Of a stretch of 64,000 nt of DNA, positions 20,534-36,119 are shown in pieces. Numbering within the stretch: position 1 is the stretch's first letter; each line of letters starts with the position of its first letter. The position numbers were made by a program, and so were the translations under genes. A model generated the notes under the pieces. The model ran no database searches. It was not told the origin of the DNA and saw only the letters and a list, made by a program, of their open reading frames with translations. Origin of the DNA: Aulosira sp. ZfuVER01 (GTDB lineage: Bacteria; Cyanobacteriota; Cyanobacteriia; Cyanobacteriales; Nostocaceae); assembly GCA_034530615.2 (NCBI GenBank), contig JAVRCV020000051.1:1-64000 (forward strand), given 5' to 3'.

Positions 20534-22924
20534 TTACCCATCCACAGTCAATTTGACTTGGACAATTAAATCGTTGAAATCGCGATCGCTGCCTGCTCCT
20601 GTGATATCCTCAAAGCCAAAGCAGTTATTGCCTAGCATCCGAACATGATTATTCTTGTCAGAATTTGCACCTAAGAATGGACTGTAAACTGCAAAGTCGT
20701 CAGAATTACTACTTAAAATTGCATCTACAGTGCTATTAGCAATAATAAAAGGTGCAAATAGCCAACCTGAGTCAAAATTGCCGGTGAAAGTTGCTTTACC
20801 TTGGTTTTTCACCTTCAAGTCAATGCCGTCAACACGTGCCCGAAGCATGGCTTTAATGTAGCCTTTATCCCCTGGACGGAAGTCAATACTACCATCATTG
20901 TCACTATCAATACCTCCATTCTCATCATTGACTCTACAGAAGCCAACTAAGTTGTCGTAAGCAGCTTCTCTGTTGATAACAAACTCTGCTTTAACCTTAG
21001 TTTTGACTTCCCGTAAATCGATGACTTCACCTTGATGCTTTCCTTGGCGGCCTATACCTAAAGGTATTTTGTCATTGGTTTCCTTAACCTTCAGCACTAA
21101 ATCGCTACCACCAATAGATACACCTTTCCAAGTCATAGAAAACCCTTCAATTTCTGAGCTTTCTATTTTGACATTCGTGGCAGATGAAAACACTACTTCA
21201 GAGAGTGAAGTTTTTCCAGACAACACAGCATCAGTAGTGCTGTTGCGTATCGTGTAGAATCTCAGGTTGGCACCTGAGTCGAATTCTAATAAGTTTGCCA
21301 AGTCAGTTGGATTAAAACCATCGGGTGCATTGGCAATAGCAGAGCAAACTATCTTTGATCGTTTGAGAGCTACTTCTGCATAACCTGCTGCACCGGGAGC
21401 AATACCCTCAATCGTACCTTGGGCATCGTCAACGATAAATACACCTATTTCGTTGACTACTTTAGAAGTGTTGCCTTCAATTTTGATTGAGATTTTTGCT
21501 TTATCACCTTTAACTTTACTTTTGACAGTAAAGATATTTTCCGTAATATTTGTGAAATTGACAATCGTTGTTATTTGATTGATGGCAGCAAATCCCAAGT
21601 CGTTAACATTGATAGCCAAGTCTTTGTCAAAGGACTCTCCTAGACTGTCAGTTGTGCGGACACGGATATTGTAGGTAGTTTTAGTTATGGAAGATTTAAT
21701 TTTGAGGCTATCTCCCTCGATAATGAATGCATCATTATCAGTATCGCCAGTGCCTGCAACCAAACTGAAAGTATACTTGATGTTTTTATCTAAGTCAGTG
21801 GTTTTGAAGACACAGATGGCTTTCTCATCATCATTACTACTACCATCATCATTCTCATCATCACCGATCGCAGTAAATATTACATCTGTAGGTGCAGAAT
21901 TAAGTACTGAGACTTGATTACTATCAGCATTCAATACCACTAAGTCAGGTTTTTTGTCACTGTTTAAGTCTGCCACCGTCACGTAAGGCGAAGATGTTTC
22001 AACTGTTAAATCGGTAGGAGTAGCAAAACCACCATTACCATCGTTTAACAGCACTGAGATGTTGTTGACATCAGCCTTTTTCCCTACTACCAAGTCAAGT
22101 TTGGCGTCACCGTCAATATCTTCTAAGACAACAGAATTCGGATTTGTCCCGACTGTGAAATTGGTATAAGTGCCAAAACCACCATTACCATCGTTCAATA
22201 GCACCGAGACATTACTAGAAGCATAATTCGCCACCACCAAGTCAAGTTGCTTGTCACCGTCTATGTCTCCAATGGCGATCGCACTGGGTTTTGTCCCAAC
22301 TGTGATGTTGGTGGGAGTACCAAAGCCGCCATTACCATCGTTCAACAATACTGAAACGTTGTCGTCATCAGCGTTCGTTACTACAAAGTCAAGCTTGCTA
22401 TCACCGTTAATGTCTCCGATTGCGATCGCAGAGGGTTTTGTCCCGACTGTAAAATCGGTAGGAGTACCAAAGCCACCACTACCATCGTTCAACAATACTG
22501 AAACGTTGTTGTCATCAACGTTGACTACCACTAAGTCAAGCTTGCTATCACCGTTAATGTCTCCGATTGCGATCGCAGAAGGTTTTGTCCCGACTGTAAA
22601 ATCGGTGGGAGTACCAAAGCTGCCATTACCATCGTTTAACAACACTGAAATGGTGTTGTCATCAGCGTTCGCTACCAATAAGTCAAGCTTTTGATCGCCA
22701 TCTACGTCTTCTGAGGTAAGGAAAACTGGGTTAGTTCCGACTGCGAAGTTGATAGGAGTGCCAAAACCATCATTACCATCGTTTAACAACACAGAAATGT
22801 TGTTGTCACCAGTGTTCGCTACTGCTAAGTCAAGTTTTCCGTCTCCATTTAAGTCTTTCACTACCACAGAAGAGGGACTTGAACCAACAGGAAAGTCGTT
22901 GGCACTTGCAAATGATAGGCTCAT
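20534..22924 (-). CDS. FG-GAP/VCBS beta-propeller plus cadherin-like plus DUF4114 surface protein
   Basis: About seven ~49-aa GDINGDSKLDLVV..SVLLNDGNGGF repeats; YNIRVRTTD; C-terminal REAAYDNLVGF, FGFEDITGAGSDRDFNDLIV. Confidence 0.88.
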   Translation of the reverse strand: MSLSFASANDFPVGSSPSSVVVKDLNGDGKLDLAVANTGDNNISVLLNDGNDGFGTPINFAVGTNPVFLTSEDVDGDQKLDLLVANADDNTISVLLNDGNGSFGTPTDFTVGTKPSAIAIGDINGDSKLDLVVVNVDDNNVSVLLNDGSGGFGTPTDFTVGTKPSAIAIGDINGDSKLDFVVTNADDDNVSVLLNDGNGGFGTPTNITVGTKPSAIAIGDIDGDKQLDLVVANYASSNVSVLLNDGNGGFGTYTNFTVGTNPNSVVLEDIDGDAKLDLVVGKKADVNNISVLLNDGNGGFATPTDLTVETSSPYVTVADLNSDKKPDLVVLNADSNQVSVLNSAPTDVIFTAIGDDENDDGSSNDDEKAICVFKTTDLDKNIKYTFSLVAGTGDTDNDAFIIEGDSLKIKSSITKTTYNIRVRTTDSLGESFDKDLAINVNDLGFAAINQITTIVNFTNITENIFTVKSKVKGDKAKISIKIEGNTSKVVNEIGVFIVDDAQGTIEGIAPGAAGYAEVALKRSKIVCSAIANAPDGFNPTDLANLLEFDSGANLRFYTIRNSTTDAVLSGKTSLSEVVFSSATNVKIESSEIEGFSMTWKGVSIGGSDLVLKVKETNDKIPLGIGRQGKHQGEVIDLREVKTKVKAEFVINREAAYDNLVGFCRVNDENGGIDSDNDGSIDFRPGDKGYIKAMLRARVDGIDLKVKNQGKATFTGNFDSGWLFAPFIIANSTVDAILSSNSDDFAVYSPFLGANSDKNNHVRMLGNNCFGFEDITGAGSDRDFNDLIVQVKLTVDG

Positions 22925-28898: not shown

Positions 28899-31871
28899 TT
28901 AGACTTCTACACCAAGGATGCATAAGTGATCCTTGATTAGTTGTTTGCCTAAGTGCATCGGATATGGAAAGAGAATATTACCCATAGACCATGCTGGGGA
29001 GTATCTTAAATAGTGTGGCACTCGGCAAAGAGATTTTAGGCTTTCTTCGGTTTTTTGAAAATCCGGATGAACAAAAAAGGGTACGATTTCTAGTATCTGC
29101 TGGTGCTTGAATGCAATATTTGCACCGTATTCGTCATTTTGAGAGTCGAGGATGTAGAGTTCGCGTACTGTTGGCGTATCTTGTGCTTTTTGTGTTGTTG
29201 GTAATCTTCCAATAGAGAAATAATGTAGCAACTTAGGTATAGATTTATCGTAAAAGCCACTTAAGCGAATTAGATCTCGCGCTGGGGATTTTTCATGCCA
29301 AGCTTTTCGATTTGTAATGTATTGGGTTGTCTCGTCACCAGTGCGGAAGCGAATAATTCCTAGCAAATTTCTGAGTTGGCTATAGTCACGAGTATATATA
29401 CAACCATGACCTGGAACATGTTGGAAATCCAAGACATCCCGCTTTGCTAGGAGATTTTCATTTTTTAGCTGGAACCAAACTTGACCTCCATTTTCTTCGC
29501 CACGTTCATTACGCCACACATCAGCTTCAATTAAGACAAGAGTAGGACGTTCATCTACTTGCATAATGACATCCGCAGCAAATTTTGCCAGTTCTATTCC
29601 CTTTAACTGAACTGTTTTCATATAATTGCGATCACGTCTTGCTCGTGAGAAAATCTGCCCAAGTTCAATCCCTGCTTGTGGATAAGGAATCCAATCCCCA
29701 CTATCGGGAAATAATACATCGACTGCACCTGTTGCCCGCAGACGCACAGCAAGGGCATAGTGAATATTATCTTGCCCTAGATGACTTTTTCGGCGACAAA
29801 GAGCAATTACATCGAGATTTTGGGCGATTTCTTTGGGTATTCCGGCTCGTTCATAGACTTCTGAAGGCAGTCCATAGAGTGCCCCAATCTGGCGTAGTGA
29901 CACATCTAAGACAGCATTTAAAATACGTCCTGTTGTTTTCTTACTATAAGACGGCGATGTGCTTGCGCTTTCAACTTCTTTATCAGTTGATTTTGGTTTA
30001 ACAGTTTGCACCATTTGAGAACCAATTTTTTCTAACACACAAGCTTCTCGAACTGCCCTATAGATGCTTTGTTTAGGGTGAACTCCTTTCTTTTTGGTTT
30101 GTCCTATTTCAACAATTGCAAAGCAGTAAGGTTTAGTAATGGAGTCAATTAAACTAATAACTTTCTGTTTTAAAAAACTACGCCATGCATCAAGTTTAAT
30201 TTGATGTTGCTTGCGAATCTGTTTGTCAAACTCTTGACCATCTTTAGGAATAAGTCCGGCTGTCTCAAGTGGCTGTAAAAGAGTTGCATCATCAATCCAC
30301 ACAGGTGATACTTTGATATGCTTTGGAAAATCTTCTCCTTCATTGAGTAGGAAAGCATCACGCAATGTTTGGTAAACTACATCATACGTATCTCGCTCGC
30401 GCCACAAAAGAAAAATATGCAGAGGGTTTCCTGACAACACTCGCTCAATAGAATTAGCAATGATTGTTTGTCGTTCATGATGATGCTTATCTACACGTTG
30501 CTTAATTTCTATTTCACTTAACCTCTGTTTTTGTTGTTTTGTGAATGTTAGAAGTTTAGAAATATATTCATAATCGCGCATAGCCAAGGGTGTTTTAAGA
30601 CCAGAGGGAGCCGGAATATCGCTTTGCATTGGAATATCTGCTATTAAAACTCCATTTAAAAGATTTAATACTTGAGCAACAATATTGCCCCGTTCTTGCA
30701 AACTAAAACCAGGTTTAATGCTGTGTCCTCTTTTATGATTGTCATATTCATACTTATATCCTTCAGCATGAACTAAATAATATTCATCTTGATTCCAGTT
30801 AGAATGATTATCTAAATTTCCACATCTCGCAGGATTTTGAAAAATGTTTTCTGTTGTTTGCAATGGACGTGCTTTAAATGCAGCTAACAAATTTGGTAAT
30901 TGAAATTTCCACTGATTACTATTTTCTCTACCATTATTCTCAATGGTCAGACGTATAAGTGTTGAATCTATTCCATAACCAGTTAGGCGTTCTTCATTCA
31001 TTCCTATTAGTACAGAGATATCACGACCATAGTTAGGTTCTATTAATGGTTCATGGGCATATCGTTGACAGCTTAAATGTAGAAATATCCAAGGTTTAAG
31101 CTTGCCATTTTCATTGAATCTACCTGCTTGGGTCTGAACGCGAAAATCTAAACGATAAACAAAATATCCTTCTCTTTCATTGTCATTATCATCTATGTAG
31201 AGTGCCCGAAATGGTTGACTAACTAAGAATAGTCCAGTCCTTCCCGAACCATCGCCTTGCACCTTACGCCACTGAATTTCTTGCTGTCTTTCTCCTGAGG
31301 AAATTACACATTTTTTTTCATGTAGCAATGTTGCTAAAAAGCTGGGAATCGCTTGAAAACCAATTCCTTTTTCGGCATTAATGTCTTGAATTAGCTTTTC
31401 TGGGGTGATAGATTGCCAACTCCAATTAGTGGGAATTATTGCTATGTCTTCTAGAAAGCGATCGCAAACACTCTTGACTTGATCCACCTTCCCTTTACCC
31501 TGAAACTGTTTTGTCCATTCCTGCGCCCAAATCATCACTAATTCATGTATTTGCTCAGGTGTTGGCACTCGCAGCGGATTTTCAACTGTTCCTACAGCTA
31601 ATGCTCGATAATCGCCGATATCAAAATACTCAAAACCATGCGTTAAGGTTGATGCACAGGCAAGTAATGCATTATTTAATTGTCGATACGGCACTCCAAC
31701 CTTTGTTTTTCGGTTAGCGGCAAGAACCTCTTCCATACTGTTGCGAAAGTCAGTAACAATTCCTGCAAATGGAAACTGAAGTACTGCAATGTCCAAATCT
31801 ACAAGAGCATCTTCCGCAAGACTCATTCGCGCAGGTAGGAGAATAGAAGGTTGCACCTCTTTTTTAGGCAT
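28899..31871 (-). CDS. pPIWI-RE family protein (N-terminal X domain, MID, RNase H-fold PIWI)
   Basis: 990 aa; VPYRQLNNALLA, IFLHLSCQRYA, HPKQSIYRAVREA..SQMV, ILNAVLD..LRQIG, ILEIV, HYLR...FPYPMHLGK; 25 bp downstream of a pPIWI-RE-type helicase C-terminus with an AAAGGA ribosome-binding site. Confidence 0.82.
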   Translation of the reverse strand: MPKKEVQPSILLPARMSLAEDALVDLDIAVLQFPFAGIVTDFRNSMEEVLAANRKTKVGVPYRQLNNALLACASTLTHGFEYFDIGDYRALAVGTVENPLRVPTPEQIHELVMIWAQEWTKQFQGKGKVDQVKSVCDRFLEDIAIIPTNWSWQSITPEKLIQDINAEKGIGFQAIPSFLATLLHEKKCVISSGERQQEIQWRKVQGDGSGRTGLFLVSQPFRALYIDDNDNEREGYFVYRLDFRVQTQAGRFNENGKLKPWIFLHLSCQRYAHEPLIEPNYGRDISVLIGMNEERLTGYGIDSTLIRLTIENNGRENSNQWKFQLPNLLAAFKARPLQTTENIFQNPARCGNLDNHSNWNQDEYYLVHAEGYKYEYDNHKRGHSIKPGFSLQERGNIVAQVLNLLNGVLIADIPMQSDIPAPSGLKTPLAMRDYEYISKLLTFTKQQKQRLSEIEIKQRVDKHHHERQTIIANSIERVLSGNPLHIFLLWRERDTYDVVYQTLRDAFLLNEGEDFPKHIKVSPVWIDDATLLQPLETAGLIPKDGQEFDKQIRKQHQIKLDAWRSFLKQKVISLIDSITKPYCFAIVEIGQTKKKGVHPKQSIYRAVREACVLEKIGSQMVQTVKPKSTDKEVESASTSPSYSKKTTGRILNAVLDVSLRQIGALYGLPSEVYERAGIPKEIAQNLDVIALCRRKSHLGQDNIHYALAVRLRATGAVDVLFPDSGDWIPYPQAGIELGQIFSRARRDRNYMKTVQLKGIELAKFAADVIMQVDERPTLVLIEADVWRNERGEENGGQVWFQLKNENLLAKRDVLDFQHVPGHGCIYTRDYSQLRNLLGIIRFRTGDETTQYITNRKAWHEKSPARDLIRLSGFYDKSIPKLLHYFSIGRLPTTQKAQDTPTVRELYILDSQNDEYGANIAFKHQQILEIVPFFVHPDFQKTEESLKSLCRVPHYLRYSPAWSMGNILFPYPMHLGKQLIKDHLCILGVEV

Positions 31872-31895
31872 TATGAATTCCTTTGTACAAAAAAT

Positions 31896-33005
31896 TTACC
31901 AGTGTAAGTCTTCAATTCTTTCCAGTGCATCAGCCAGAGGCTTGTAAAGCGCATTTCCCACTGTGTTATCCTCGCTGGCGTAGTCGCAGATGCGTAAAAG
32001 CATGGCTACCAGAAGACTTGTTTCCTCTGTATCAAATTCAGATAATTCAGGATCTGCTTTCCTTGCAGCACTCTTGGGTGCCCAAGCTGCATCAACAAAA
32101 TAACCACGAAATGGCACACCTCCACGTAAGAGACGACCAACAGCTTGAATAACTAACCCAGCCGTAGTAGCAGCCAGGTCAAATCGCGGAAAAGACAGTA
32201 ATTCCTGATGATCGCGCAGGATTTTATAGTAAGAACGTTGCTCAACCGATCGCCAATAACGCGCTGCCAATTGACGCACCTTTTCTGCACGTTGTACAAT
32301 TCCATCTCCCTGTTGCCATGCCACAAAATCTGCTTTATCTGCCCAGTCTAAAGCGCGACGGTTCATTTCTTGGGCGATCGCTTGTGTATCATGGGGGTGT
32401 GGATATGGACGAGTGAGAAAATATACAGCACCAAATGCAGCTTTACCATGAATATTCAAAATATTGAACCCACGTCCGATCGCATTCATCGGTGCAACTA
32501 GAATCTTGGCTTTTATTTGCCCAAAAGTCTCAATATCTGCGCGGTTCAGCGCACCTTTATCATTTGATTTGGCAAATTTTTCGCCTTCATCAAGGTCATC
32601 TTCTGTGTATGTATCAGTATTATCAGGAACTAAGTGATAAACTAATTCCTGCATACTTGACCAACAATTACGGATCTCGTTTGCTACCCAACGGGCTTGA
32701 TCGTAAGAGTTGACTAGTAGTAAAAGGCGATCGAGATCGCGCCAGTGGTTATCAGCATCACGATCGCCAATATATTTCAATTCTCGAAGTTCTTGCCCTA
32801 GATGACCTGTGCCGTTAGTCCCAACAAGCGATCGCGCTATTTCCTGCAATAAGCTCATTTTGCGTCGTTCAGACATACCAGAAATGCGGAGAGGTTGGTT
32901 CTTTTGGTTGAATTGGGGAAGAAACTTGAAGAAGCTTTGGGCGATCGCCTCACTCGCCTCCTGTTCTGGCATCAAAACAGCGTGGGCATTATCAAGGTGA
33001 AAACT
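31896..33005 (-). pseudogene. C-terminal part of the pPIWI-RE-associated DinG-like SF2 helicase (open frame 31896-32975)
   Basis: LLLVNSYDQA, ILVAPMNAIGRGFNIL, FGAVYFLTRPYPHPHD, QAVGRLLRGGVP, YFVDAAWAP, LYKPLADAL; no Walker A/B half. Confidence 0.8.
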
Positions 33006-33100
33006 AGCAAATCTGAAAAGTAGAACGTTTCAGAGATAGTCAGCAAAATAGAACCACATTGACTACTAAAGTTGTCAATAAGTGGCGAAAAGTTACATTT

Positions 33101-33128
33101 TTGACAAAATTTAGTTCAGATGTATTAT
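33101..33128 (+). promoter_or_regulatory. Candidate sigma70-type promoter for the PLD-helicase gene
   Basis: TTGACA-N16-TATTAT about 30 bp upstream of ATG 33161. Confidence 0.5.
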
Positions 33129-33160
33129 TATCTATAGTTCAAACGTATTAGCACTGAGTT

Positions 33161-35851
33161 ATGACTGATTCTCCGCCAAGATCCTGGTTTGATTCCAAGA
33201 CAATCTATGAACAAATCCAATACCACTTCCCAAAGTGCCAATCAAAAATACGTATTGCATCTGGCTATTTTACTGTAAACGGCTGGGATCAGATTCGGGA
33301 TGTTGTAAAAGGAAAGTATGTTGATCTGTTAGTTGGAATTAACGAACGAACTCAAAGACAAGACGAAAGACACGCACAGCACCTTCTAATCCAAGAAATC
33401 AAGAAAGATTTAGCAACAGGATCATCACCAGGTAATCGCCGTCAAGCTGTAGCAGATTTAGTTAATAGAATTCGGACGGGTCAATTTCGGATTGTTGATG
33501 CACGTGCTAGGAAACATCATGCAAAACTTTACTTTGTTGACTGTAAGGTTGTCATCATTACCTCAGCCAATTTAACGAAACATGGCTTAATGCAACAGGT
33601 TGAAGCTGGTAATCCACTGAGTCGGAAGAAGGAAATTGTAAAACTTGTCAAGAAATTTGATGGATATTTTGCTGAAGCAGTAGATTTAACTCAGAGGCTA
33701 CTTAAAGCTCTTGAAGATTGGTTGAAACTTGCTACTCCGTGGGATATTTACCTCAAAACCTTACTTGCTTTTGAGGATGTAGAAATTGATAATAAGTATA
33801 CTCCGCCAACGAATTATCAAAGAGCAATGATTGCTGAAACTTTACAGAAAATAAGCGATCACAGCGGAGTCATGTTGGTTGCTTCAACAGGACTTGGAAA
33901 GACCGTTGTTGCTACTCACCTCGCCTTGAAACTTTTTAGATCAAATGAAATTATACATGTATTGATTATTGGCCCGAAATTAGTTAAAAGGCAATGGCAG
34001 TCTGAATTTATGGATGCGGGTATCCCTCAGACCTATATCGGCTATCAAGCTTTAGATAAAGAAGATCCAAGCCATGATCGTAATCTTGAACACTTTATCG
34101 AAATAGAAGAAAAAATAAATAAGCAATGGCTCATTATTATTGATGAATGCCATCTATTCAGAAATTGCCATGATAGTGCAGAAGGCCCTAGAAGGCGCTC
34201 ATTCCAAAGATTGATTTCACGAATTAAAGAAAGTGGCTGTAAAGTCTTACTTCTAACTGGCTCACCTTACTCTAAAGATATTAGGAATCTCAATCACCAA
34301 ATTCTGCTTCTACCTCACACTGCGGAAATTGAAACTTTTTCAGATAAACAAAACAAGAACAATTTCAATTGGCATACAGATAGTATAAAAGGATTTATTA
34401 ACTTGCCTGTTGTGTCTCAATTAACTACACCTTATGTTGCACAACAGTATGGAAAGAAGCTAGAGACTGGCATATTAATTGAGTTTGGACAGCAAAAGCG
34501 ATATATTCCGCTTGTCAAGTTATATCGAGTTAATTTCCATTTATTCATGGAAAGTGAAATTTCTCAAGTTTTTAGGGATGGTTGCTTTACCGTTAATGAT
34601 CCTCCAGCGTCACGCAAGTTTATAGAGACGCAAGCAGAAGTTGCCTGGGTTAGTTCACCGTGGGCACTTCGCGAAATTATCAAAAAGGTTATTAATACCC
34701 CAGGCAAGCGAAACTTGTCATACGAATTTGGGTTTGAAATGTCTCAATCTCAGCGCCGTGAAATATTAGAGCCGCTCCTAAGTCGATTAAACCAAATGCA
34801 GTTTACTGAGGATCACAAACTTGCATCTCTATGTAACTTTCTCCAAAAAGCTCACTTTAATAGTAAAAAAATTATCATTTTTTGTGAGCGTCGTGCAACA
34901 GTGGTTTATCTTGTTGAAGCCATTAATGCTTTACTTCCCAATCTGCGAGTATTTGGCACAATTAAGCAAGCAAAAGGTCAATATGTGCATAGAAGCGACC
35001 GAGAGATTTTCCAGGCAATTAAAAAGTTTGCGCCAGTTGCAAACAGAGCCGAAGGAAAATACAAAGAGACTTACGAAATTTTTATTTCAACCGATGCTCA
35101 TGGTGTTGGCATTAATCTACAAGACGCACCTGTAGTTATTAATTATGATTTAGCTTGGACAGCTATTGAACCTACACAAAGAGCAGGCCGTGTTCTAAGA
35201 CCCTGGATTGAACCGCGTAATGTGGAGCTTTACACTTTTGTTCCACCACTAGAAGGTGATGCTTTACGTGATTTAGGCATTGCAAAACGTTACAGTAACC
35301 TAGCAAATCGCCACAGTCAATCTCAAGAAATTATGGAGCTTCCTGTTCTATCTATAAATGAGAAAGAAGAAGTTAATTTTTTCAACAATGTATCCAAAGT
35401 AACAATTCAATCGGGTGTACTTGATTTAGAGGCTTTAGTCGATGACAATATATCACCATATTATCACCATGCATCTAAGCTGTATAATAACCGCGACTAT
35501 GCTCGAAAGATTCGTGATGATATTATTAGTGCAAAAATTTATTCAGGGCGAACAATTTTGATTTACGTCTTGTTTAAACACGAAGATGAATACAAATGGG
35601 CTGTTTATGAACCTAAGTCAAAAAGCTTGCGGAACATATCACGTAATCAATTACTTGATTGGCTGGAATGTAAAGAACATACTGAACTTGCCCTCGTTAA
35701 TACTGATGAAATTGAAGAACTTAGCTATGCTTGCATAAAAGAGTGGTCTAAACAAAATAATGCTAATTTAGATGATATTGTCAGAGAATGTGCAATGTAT
35801 CTCAAACCATCACATCAAACTGATGATGTTGAAAGTTTAGCTAGATATTAG
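33161..35851 (+). CDS. PLD-family nuclease fused to an SF2 (SNF2/DExH-like) helicase
   Basis: IASGYFT and HAKLYFVD...TSANLT (PLD HxK); ASTGLGKT, IIIDECH, LLTGSP, IIFCERRAT, STDAHGVGINLQDA..INYDL, QRAGRVLR. Confidence 0.9.
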   Translation: MTDSPPRSWFDSKTIYEQIQYHFPKCQSKIRIASGYFTVNGWDQIRDVVKGKYVDLLVGINERTQRQDERHAQHLLIQEIKKDLATGSSPGNRRQAVADLVNRIRTGQFRIVDARARKHHAKLYFVDCKVVIITSANLTKHGLMQQVEAGNPLSRKKEIVKLVKKFDGYFAEAVDLTQRLLKALEDWLKLATPWDIYLKTLLAFEDVEIDNKYTPPTNYQRAMIAETLQKISDHSGVMLVASTGLGKTVVATHLALKLFRSNEIIHVLIIGPKLVKRQWQSEFMDAGIPQTYIGYQALDKEDPSHDRNLEHFIEIEEKINKQWLIIIDECHLFRNCHDSAEGPRRRSFQRLISRIKESGCKVLLLTGSPYSKDIRNLNHQILLLPHTAEIETFSDKQNKNNFNWHTDSIKGFINLPVVSQLTTPYVAQQYGKKLETGILIEFGQQKRYIPLVKLYRVNFHLFMESEISQVFRDGCFTVNDPPASRKFIETQAEVAWVSSPWALREIIKKVINTPGKRNLSYEFGFEMSQSQRREILEPLLSRLNQMQFTEDHKLASLCNFLQKAHFNSKKIIIFCERRATVVYLVEAINALLPNLRVFGTIKQAKGQYVHRSDREIFQAIKKFAPVANRAEGKYKETYEIFISTDAHGVGINLQDAPVVINYDLAWTAIEPTQRAGRVLRPWIEPRNVELYTFVPPLEGDALRDLGIAKRYSNLANRHSQSQEIMELPVLSINEKEEVNFFNNVSKVTIQSGVLDLEALVDDNISPYYHHASKLYNNRDYARKIRDDIISAKIYSGRTILIYVLFKHEDEYKWAVYEPKSKSLRNISRNQLLDWLECKEHTELALVNTDEIEELSYACIKEWSKQNNANLDDIVRECAMYLKPSHQTDDVESLARY

Positions 35852-35859
35852 TACTTTAT

Positions 35860-36060
35860 ATCCACTGGTTACAAGTGCCACCTGCTGAGTTATTCAGAAC
35901 TACAGATGCGGATCAATTGAATACACCTGAAGCGATCGCCATTCAACTACGAGCTGACAAAAACCTTGATCCAGCGATTGCTAATGCTTTAGCGTCTCTA
36001 GTCAAAGCAGCCTATCAAGACCTTTCTCAAAAAGATAGCGAATACAAGCAAGACTCTTGA
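35860..36060 (+). pseudogene. 3' remnant of an XRE-family HTH regulator
   Basis: HWLQVPPAELF...EAIAIQLRADKNLDPAIANALASLVKAAY; starts mid-domain, right after the PLD-helicase stop. Confidence 0.6.
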
Positions 36061-36062
36061 CT

Positions 36063-36119
36063 ATGTCATTGATTGAAAAACTATCACCTGAATTTAGGCA
36101 ACGCTGTGAGGCGATCGCA
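36063..36119 (+). pseudogene. 5' remnant of a gene coupled to the XRE gene, probably an ImmA/IrrE metallopeptidase
   Basis: MSLIEKLSPEFRQRCEAIA, then AT-rich non-coding-like sequence immediately after HIP1 at 36111-36118. Confidence 0.4.

Follow-up and report, generated by a model that had tools for sequence, protein, structure and literature searches.

A 64,000-nucleotide stretch of the cyanobacterium Aulosira sp. ZfuVER01 (contig JAVRCV020000051.1, positions 1 to 64,000; hereafter the window) carries a pPIWI-RE defense island, named for its Argonaute-like protein, with a peptide ABC transporter gene on one side and psbB on the other. Our preferred explanation, to which we give a probability of about 0.72, is that the middle of this island was replaced by a self-contained cassette encoding an HKD (PLD) nuclease fused to a Snf2 motor, that the cassette is likely spreading between Nostoc-group species by homologous recombination with the leftover island ends as arms, and that the PIWI gene beside it is likely an orphan, usually deleted later. 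The parts that an earlier note had named from the DNA letters (PIWI, a DinG helicase remnant, a PLD-helicase, XRE and ImmA remnants and host flanks) are all present (Table 1).

The replacement could be mapped against G007, a genome of the same genus in which the same site holds ImmA, XRE, restriction endonuclease (REase), DinG and PIWI genes, broken by frameshifts and an insertion. Window positions 33091-35863 occupy the place of 3,427 bp of that island (L041 7398-10824), and the parts replaced are DinG up to codon ~810, the REase gene, the intergenic (promoter) stretch between XRE and REase, and the first ~55 codons of XRE. This bears out the earlier proposal that the PLD-helicase displaced the REase, the 5' part of the helicase and the 5' half of the XRE gene. 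The same note called the remnant half a helicase with about 370 C-terminal codons; the codon count holds (373 open codons, matching positions 640-924 of 930 in PADLOC PprDinG), but against a complete relative of 1,208 aa the open frame covers residues 839-1208, the last ~31% rather than half. The remnant keeps motifs IV-VI and lacks Walker B (DEIE at 484 in the whole relative) and the Z domain; alone, it would be incapable of ATPase activity. On the other side of the cassette, most of the helix-turn-helix (HTH) region (15-66) is deleted from the XRE remnant, and the whole XRE and ImmA/IrrE-like genes of relatives match HTH_3 and Peptidase_M78. A second XRE gene related to the island repressor, frameshifted, lies elsewhere in the same genome (G000:C36 13495-13832). 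Neither the REase nor the DinG 5' part was found elsewhere in this 99.99%-complete genome by tblastn with relatives' proteins, among them the REases of two relatives. Compared with the pPIWI-RE three-gene system, the locus has neither an REase in first position nor a full-length DinG with a Z domain and, judged by its gene content, is not a member.

As displayed by relatives, the ancestral island has XRE followed by ImmA in one direction and, divergent from them, REase, DinG and PIWI in the other. The regulators divergent from the REase (L138-L148, among others) form a CapH/CapP-like pair, which suggests that the whole operon is inducible by DNA damage. A single illegitimate event probably fused the cassette with DinG at codon ~811 and with XRE at codon ~56; the junction sequence is common to all 14 aligned carriers. 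Loss of the REase, the ATPase half of the helicase, the XRE-REase intergenic region and the repressor would then kill the PIWI system.

The earlier note had allowed that this pairing might be unique to one strain; it is not. Of 389 genomes in the family, 37 have a homolog; in 17 of these, counting the window, it is this cassette or a large part thereof, with an identity of no less than 80% (one duplicate of locus L050 counted once), while two further genomes (L179 and L046) retain traces only. By their ImmA-side neighbor, the carriers fall at three chromosomal sites, next to psbB (2), deoxyhypusine synthase (4) or pentapeptide/purK (11), and each of these sites also holds alleles with the REase and DinG 5' part in other species. 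Islands of the same type occupy at least 5 chromosomal sites (L137-L156, L034, L041), with no integrase seen, and the island ends have no terminal sequence in common apart from the stop codons of PIWI and ImmA. An 18-mer at the right junction was considered as a recombinase site and dropped, being the cassette's own 3' end and also left in G009. At one of the trace loci (L046 4233-11537, psbB site), the island is filled by a small integrase together with a ternary system of the Trypco1/trypsin-iSTAND/MoxR/vWA/FGE-sulfatase type, with 18 bp of the cassette 3' end kept. Further afield, a phylum sample (12 of 401 genomes) added no close relative besides G079 and the Nostoc carriers, a plasmid search returned four distant homologs, none above 47% identity, and a metagenome scan with the 63%-identical outgroup protein of G079 returned only a 100%-identical copy.

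Mosaic and tree tests show that cassette and flanks have different histories at the three sites. Leftward of position 32900, identity is 89-97% between the window and G007 and 88-96% between the window and G005, compared with 72-90% for other carriers, whereas the 5' part of its cassette is 96-98% identical to carriers at other sites. Right of the switch interval in the DinG remnant (Table 1), the window is donor-type at 29 of 29 informative sites (32980-33086). This left donor tract is short (110-140 bp), and the right arm is mainly resident-type (23 resident, 11 donor and 2 other among 36 sites). A HIP1 site at 32941 lies beside the left crossover; HIP1 is reported to raise recombination efficiency (10.1101/2024.09.10.611283). 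In eroded islands, 11 of 70 alignment ends had HIP1 no more than 15 bp away, against a background of 3.3%, these ends including non-deletion breaks and junctions shared by kin.

A single clade of carriers was rejected by the approximately unbiased (AU) test for the PIWI 3' part (8 versus 25 rows, p-AU 3.7e-7), the DinG remnant (8 versus 19 rows, p-AU 3.3e-11) and XRE/ImmA (13 versus 20 rows, p-AU 5.5e-7), the first two trees leaving out rows with too little sequence. Sister pairs of a carrier and an intact island exist, such as L062 and L142 (100/100). Because the flanks group with intact islands and not with other carriers, we infer that homologous recombination is the likely way in which the cassette gains entry to resident islands. 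The cassette is itself a mosaic: in the window, its 3' part pairs as sister with that of the same-site L050 (100/99) and its 5' part does not, a difference in history which means that more than one exchange built the window allele. The route of DNA entry and the direction of each exchange are presumed, and intact flanks could also have moved into carriers; in either direction, PIWI and cassette are reshuffled rather than co-inherited. Selection for the cassette, relief from a costly island, or both, would drive the spread.

The cassette is predicted to act alone. Its protein keeps H120/K122/D127, a Walker A motif (T243-T248), D328/E329 and motif VI, all invariant in 45 aligned homologs, and its motor aligns to the Ino80 ATPase (VIA Z 25.3, root-mean-square deviation 3.2, 391 aligned). 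SauUSI (PDB 7clg) is among the Foldseek matches (E 2.4e-15). No domain could be assigned to the C-terminal ~150 aa, the end at which a SauUSI-like type IV restriction enzyme has its SRA domain for modified bases, and no sequence-recognition domain was identified in structure searches, the whole-model searches reaching residues 208-743 only and the Atlas matches for 735-896 all scoring below 0.9. The protein falls far under all NCBIfam cut-offs (71 bits for NF042964, against a cut-off of 1100), and the window holds no methylase, DUF499 or ABC-ATPase partner genes. The gene has been under purifying selection, as its median ratio of nonsynonymous to synonymous substitution (dN/dS) of 0.285 over 91 pairs implies.

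Upstream of this gene stands the region's highest-scoring sigma-70 match (11 of 12), with two LexA-like boxes that overlap and follow the -10 element. Against a consensus built from PMC3091678 and from the lexA and recA boxes of the same genome, the mismatch level of these boxes is equalled or bettered by 196 of 725 background windows. The boxes are conserved in carriers and also in the outgroup of 63% identity, one of them having a single mismatch there, and a third Nostoc lineage of the family has perfect boxes at 4 of 6 loci (0 of 725 in the background); most non-Nostoc homologs have none. Taken together, these features lead us to predict a stand-alone, LexA-repressed, DNA-damage-induced nuclease directed against invaders, in which an ATP-driven Snf2 motor would track double-stranded DNA and the HKD domains would pair to cut it. 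Two HKD domains are needed per active site.

The 990-aa protein left beside the cassette is an intact pPIWI-RE member with an Argonaute fold. It passes the Pfam cut-offs for pPIWI_RE_X (4.8e-15) and RNaseH_pPIWI_RE (9.9e-21) and matches PADLOC PprPIWI (3.7e-45), and its AlphaFold model (pLDDT 92.9) has Argonaute/PIWI structures as top Foldseek matches. The X and RNase H domains foreseen in the earlier note are thereby confirmed; the MID domain is not, as Pfam MID_pPIWI_RE gave no match to the window protein, although a 65%-identical relative matched. Four putative guide-binding residues are retained: R608 and Q619, invariant across 76 aligned rows, and R843 and E928, present in 69 and 71 of those rows. 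By their spacing, the latter two probably correspond to the signature R/E pair of PMC3702460. Y604 stands in place of the usual K in the window protein and in all 17 close relatives checked. The protein is likely non-slicing, because the end of RNase H strand 1 has no Asp (C692/R693), as is also the case in whole-operon relatives; pPIWI-RE catalytic residues are described as conserved in only a subset of the family (PMC3702460).

Across carriers, PIWI is usually on its way out. Four of the 17 (the window, L062, L063 and L067) have the gene at full length with an open frame, and one more lacks 43 N-terminal codons. At least a quarter of the gene is gone in 12 of 17 carriers, compared with one largely deleted copy, near a contig end, among 22 comparison alleles (p 1.7e-5), and PIWI is intact in 4 of 17 carriers versus 14 of 22 such alleles (p 0.023), with the 22 having been selected for keeping the DinG 5' part and kin being non-independent in both tests. 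The cassette is intact in eight carriers, broken in eight and split over two contigs in one, and the two genes are not retained together (3/5/1/7, Fisher p 0.57): both are intact in three carriers, an intact cassette lacks a full PIWI in five, and a full PIWI stands beside a truncated cassette in one.

The choice of comparison alleles and their kinship weigh against our reading, as do several further observations. All key PIWI residues are retained in the window, and its PIWI shows no relaxation: dN/dS is 0.17-0.20 against the four nearest relatives, with a median of 0.21 in controls (55 pairs among 11 whole-operon alleles, two with minor lesions). The DinG remnant likewise gives 0.15, versus 0.14 among whole-operon alleles, and its frame is open in all four carriers with a full PIWI. 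These ratios are pairwise between living sequences and do not isolate the period after the swap. The junction is young: over 200 codons, the synonymous difference (pS) from the nearest donors is 0.029. At the upper bound of its age, a neutral PIWI would have stayed free of stops with a probability of ~0.1-0.2, higher if the junction is younger; given a young junction and this modest probability, recentness and continuing constraint are inseparable. Finally, three separate lineages of HKD-Snf2 nuclease lie in or beside pPIWI-RE islands, more than our explanation strictly needs. Decay at a defense hotspot, one of the two alternatives offered in the earlier note, is right as to outcome and overlooks the process, since the cassette has spread across species rather than arising in a one-off event; the lack of relaxed dN/dS in the window PIWI also speaks against pure decay.

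The link recurs in a second lineage, 29% identical to the window gene, in which sister-type island remnants lie beside the gene in 8 of 10 genomes; the gene is antisense inside DinG in some and in one follows the ImmA gene of a near-whole, damaged operon. Upstream of this second-lineage gene at L115, L117, L119, L128 and L056, differing left junctions meet the same short CAGGACTTACGCA motif, which we take to be a dispersed repeat of Nostoc. The 63% outgroup gene follows a whole, distant pPIWI-RE operon in G079 and is itself frameshifted. On a 177-kb contig (L053 8525-16545), a third-lineage gene immediately follows Mokosh MkoA/MkoB, and G253 has both an open-frame third-lineage homolog and a whole pPIWI-RE operon; because of G253, we rejected the idea that this nuclease family and whole operons strictly exclude each other. 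Other genes enter these islands too: in two genomes, a DRT4 reverse transcriptase (RT) gene (PADLOC 1e-180; L152 8882-10486, L153 9515-11119) is inserted antisense and replaces the DinG 3' half and the PIWI start, and many islands are eroded with no trace of the cassette. A second hotspot, downstream of glmS (L038, L040, L039, L047, L056), holds a sister-type island with AIPR/AbiU, DndB-like, GmrSD, HEPN and C5-methylase genes. A general hotspot accounts for the recurring link, but with three associations a drive or an accessory role retains some probability.

Such a drive would resemble homing: the cassette nuclease would cut the part of the island that it replaces, and repair from a cassette-bearing copy would convert intact islands, in the manner of free-standing phage homing endonucleases. 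In its broadest form, and as an improbable conjecture, HKD-Snf2 cassettes would be parasites of Argonaute-like islands, damage-induced nucleases that cut the REase-DinG part and are copied in through the island ends, with at least two origins in Nostoc. This idea fits the recurrent arrival of the cassette in resident islands at three sites, the short left donor tract and mainly resident-type right arm, the cassettes already broken in 8 of 17 carriers, the 29% lineage with its island remnants and antisense placements, and the frameshifted outgroup gene beside a whole operon. We nonetheless consider it unlikely. Ordinary recombination with selection yields the same mosaic, the crossover adjoins a HIP1 site, an RT-type gene struck the same target, the cassette protein presents no identified domain for sequence recognition within the searches described above, and an open-frame homolog coexists with a whole operon in G253. 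We know of no HKD-Snf2 homing nuclease.

Somewhat less credible still is a residual function, in which a weak promoter near 33017-32988 would continue to drive PIWI and perhaps also the C-terminal DinG fragment, and PIWI would be kept, independently of the cassette, for a guide-binding role of its own such as DNA-damage tolerance. The normal dN/dS and unbroken frames of both genes in the window are what it predicts, and deletion of PIWI-RE alone lowered ciprofloxacin survival in Pseudomonas stutzeri (PMC10991935); however, the P. stutzeri protein is described there as catalytically active and has its operon. Furthermore, 12 of 17 carriers have lost much of PIWI, and the promoter match is at chance level (9 of 12; 18 sites found versus 21.7 expected). 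In L062, a full-PIWI carrier, dN/dS is raised to 0.39 (p 0.037), a value confounded by low divergence that hints at relaxation.

The other alternative in the earlier note, that PIWI recruits the HKD-Snf2 protein as a replacement nuclease-helicase and so forms a new effector, fares worst and seems to us very unlikely. In its favor, the cassette does bring a nuclease and a motor, the two kinds of activity that were lost; three of the 17 carriers have both genes unbroken; and members of the family adjoin pPIWI-RE in three lineages, following whole or near-whole modules in the same orientation at L052 and L114. Against it, in the carriers the cassette is divergent from PIWI with a separate promoter of its own, only 4 of 17 keep a full PIWI, each gene is found intact without the other and no co-retention is seen, all 59 of 59 more distant homolog loci are without PIWI within the fetched flank (some flanks short), and the L052 gene keeps its own boxes and is frameshifted.

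Table 1. Positions of island features within the 64,000-nucleotide window.
Feature	Position	Strand	Description
pPIWI-RE gene	28899..31871	-	990 aa, unbroken frame; identified by Pfam, PADLOC, AlphaFold/Foldseek
DinG-type helicase 3' remnant	31896..33090	-	codons ~811-1208; open frame 31896-33017
Left crossover interval	32952..32980	.	resident-type (G007-like) leftward, donor-type rightward
Incoming cassette	33091..35863	+	2,773 bp, promoter plus single gene
Cassette promoter	33101..33150	+	TTGACA-16-TATTAT at 33101-33128, plus two degenerate LexA-like boxes
LexA-like boxes	33112-33127, 33135-33150		each 2 mismatches to consensus
HKD (PLD) nuclease-Snf2 motor fusion	33161..35851	+	896 aa; PLDc_2, ResIII/SNF2, Helicase_C
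XRE repressor 3' remnant	35864..36060	+	codons ~56-121
ImmA/IrrE-like peptidase start	36063..36119	+	first 19 codons; remainder deleted from HIP1 site at 36111

The host flanks are a peptide ABC substrate-binding protein gene and, on the opposite side, a conserved 144-aa open reading frame that precedes psbB. Elsewhere in the window, 20534-22924 encodes a 796-aa protein with FG-GAP-like repeats, as judged by eye from the translation.

If replacement followed by recombinational spread is correct, a PIWI gene beside a new nuclease can be a transient replacement state rather than a new system, and the turnover of defense genes has a route in which the ends of a dying system become landing pads that can be carried from site to site and from genus to genus. 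The work also flags an uncharacterized stand-alone HKD-Snf2 nuclease, likely under SOS control, as an anti-invader candidate, and assembles a natural panel of whole-operon, cassette-bearing and eroded pPIWI-RE alleles for a system with few experiments in the papers found. Were the drive true, a selfish element of a new kind would be acting against a defense island, with one defense gene deleting and replacing another. In titles and abstract starts, we found no paper on pPIWI-RE with a PLD helicase or on this cassette, nor one on the use of another system's broken ends as arms across sites or genera. The main text of PMC3702460 does not contain the word 'Phospholipase'; its Additional file 1 of gene neighborhoods lies outside that text and may bear on the question.

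The closest known system is the pPIWI-RE three-gene island (Burroughs, Iyer and Aravind 2013, PMC3702460; PADLOC PprPIWI/PprDinG). The window likewise has a PIWI protein with X, putative MID-like and RNase H parts and a conserved R/E pair directly downstream of DinG-type sequence, and its relatives show the full REase-DinG-PIWI order; unlike that island, the window lacks the REase, the Z domain and the ATPase half of the helicase, and Nostoc islands add a divergent XRE/ImmA pair, here a remnant. PsPIWI-RE of P. stutzeri belongs to the same protein family and is reported to slice via D525/D610 (PMC10991935), whereas the window clade lacks the strand-1 Asp, as judged from the model and an alignment without PsPIWI-RE itself. 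The regulators of the ancestral island resemble CapH/CapP and ImmR/ImmA (10.1101/2022.04.27.489752, the main text of which does not mention PIWI) in pairing an HTH repressor with an IrrE-like peptidase divergent from a defense operon, but the island peptidase is short (181 aa) and both regulator genes are destroyed in the window.

The cassette protein shares an N-terminal HKD nuclease and a Snf2-type motor with type-2 BR helicases (PMC12839542), PbeA (PMC10853773) and SauUSI (PDB 7clg). Such fusions are predicted restriction effectors, and neither of the first two papers mentions PIWI in its main text. The cassette differs from them in its low NCBIfam scores, in having no partner genes in the window, in its LexA-like boxes and in its unassigned C-terminal domain. 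To SegB/SegF intronless homing (PMC13096335), in which a free-standing nuclease gene converts alleles lacking it, the likeness is in population patterns only: the cases described there are phage GIY-YIG enzymes, while the cassette is a chromosomal HKD-Snf2 gene whose cutting is only hypothesized. Replacement of cargo at defense hotspots is already known, and in the E. coli immigration control region and hotspot 37 (PMC12707154), as here, it is exchanged between conserved anchors. Unlike in the hotspots described there, the anchors in the window are the broken ends of another defense system, which would enable the cassette to cross sites and genera.

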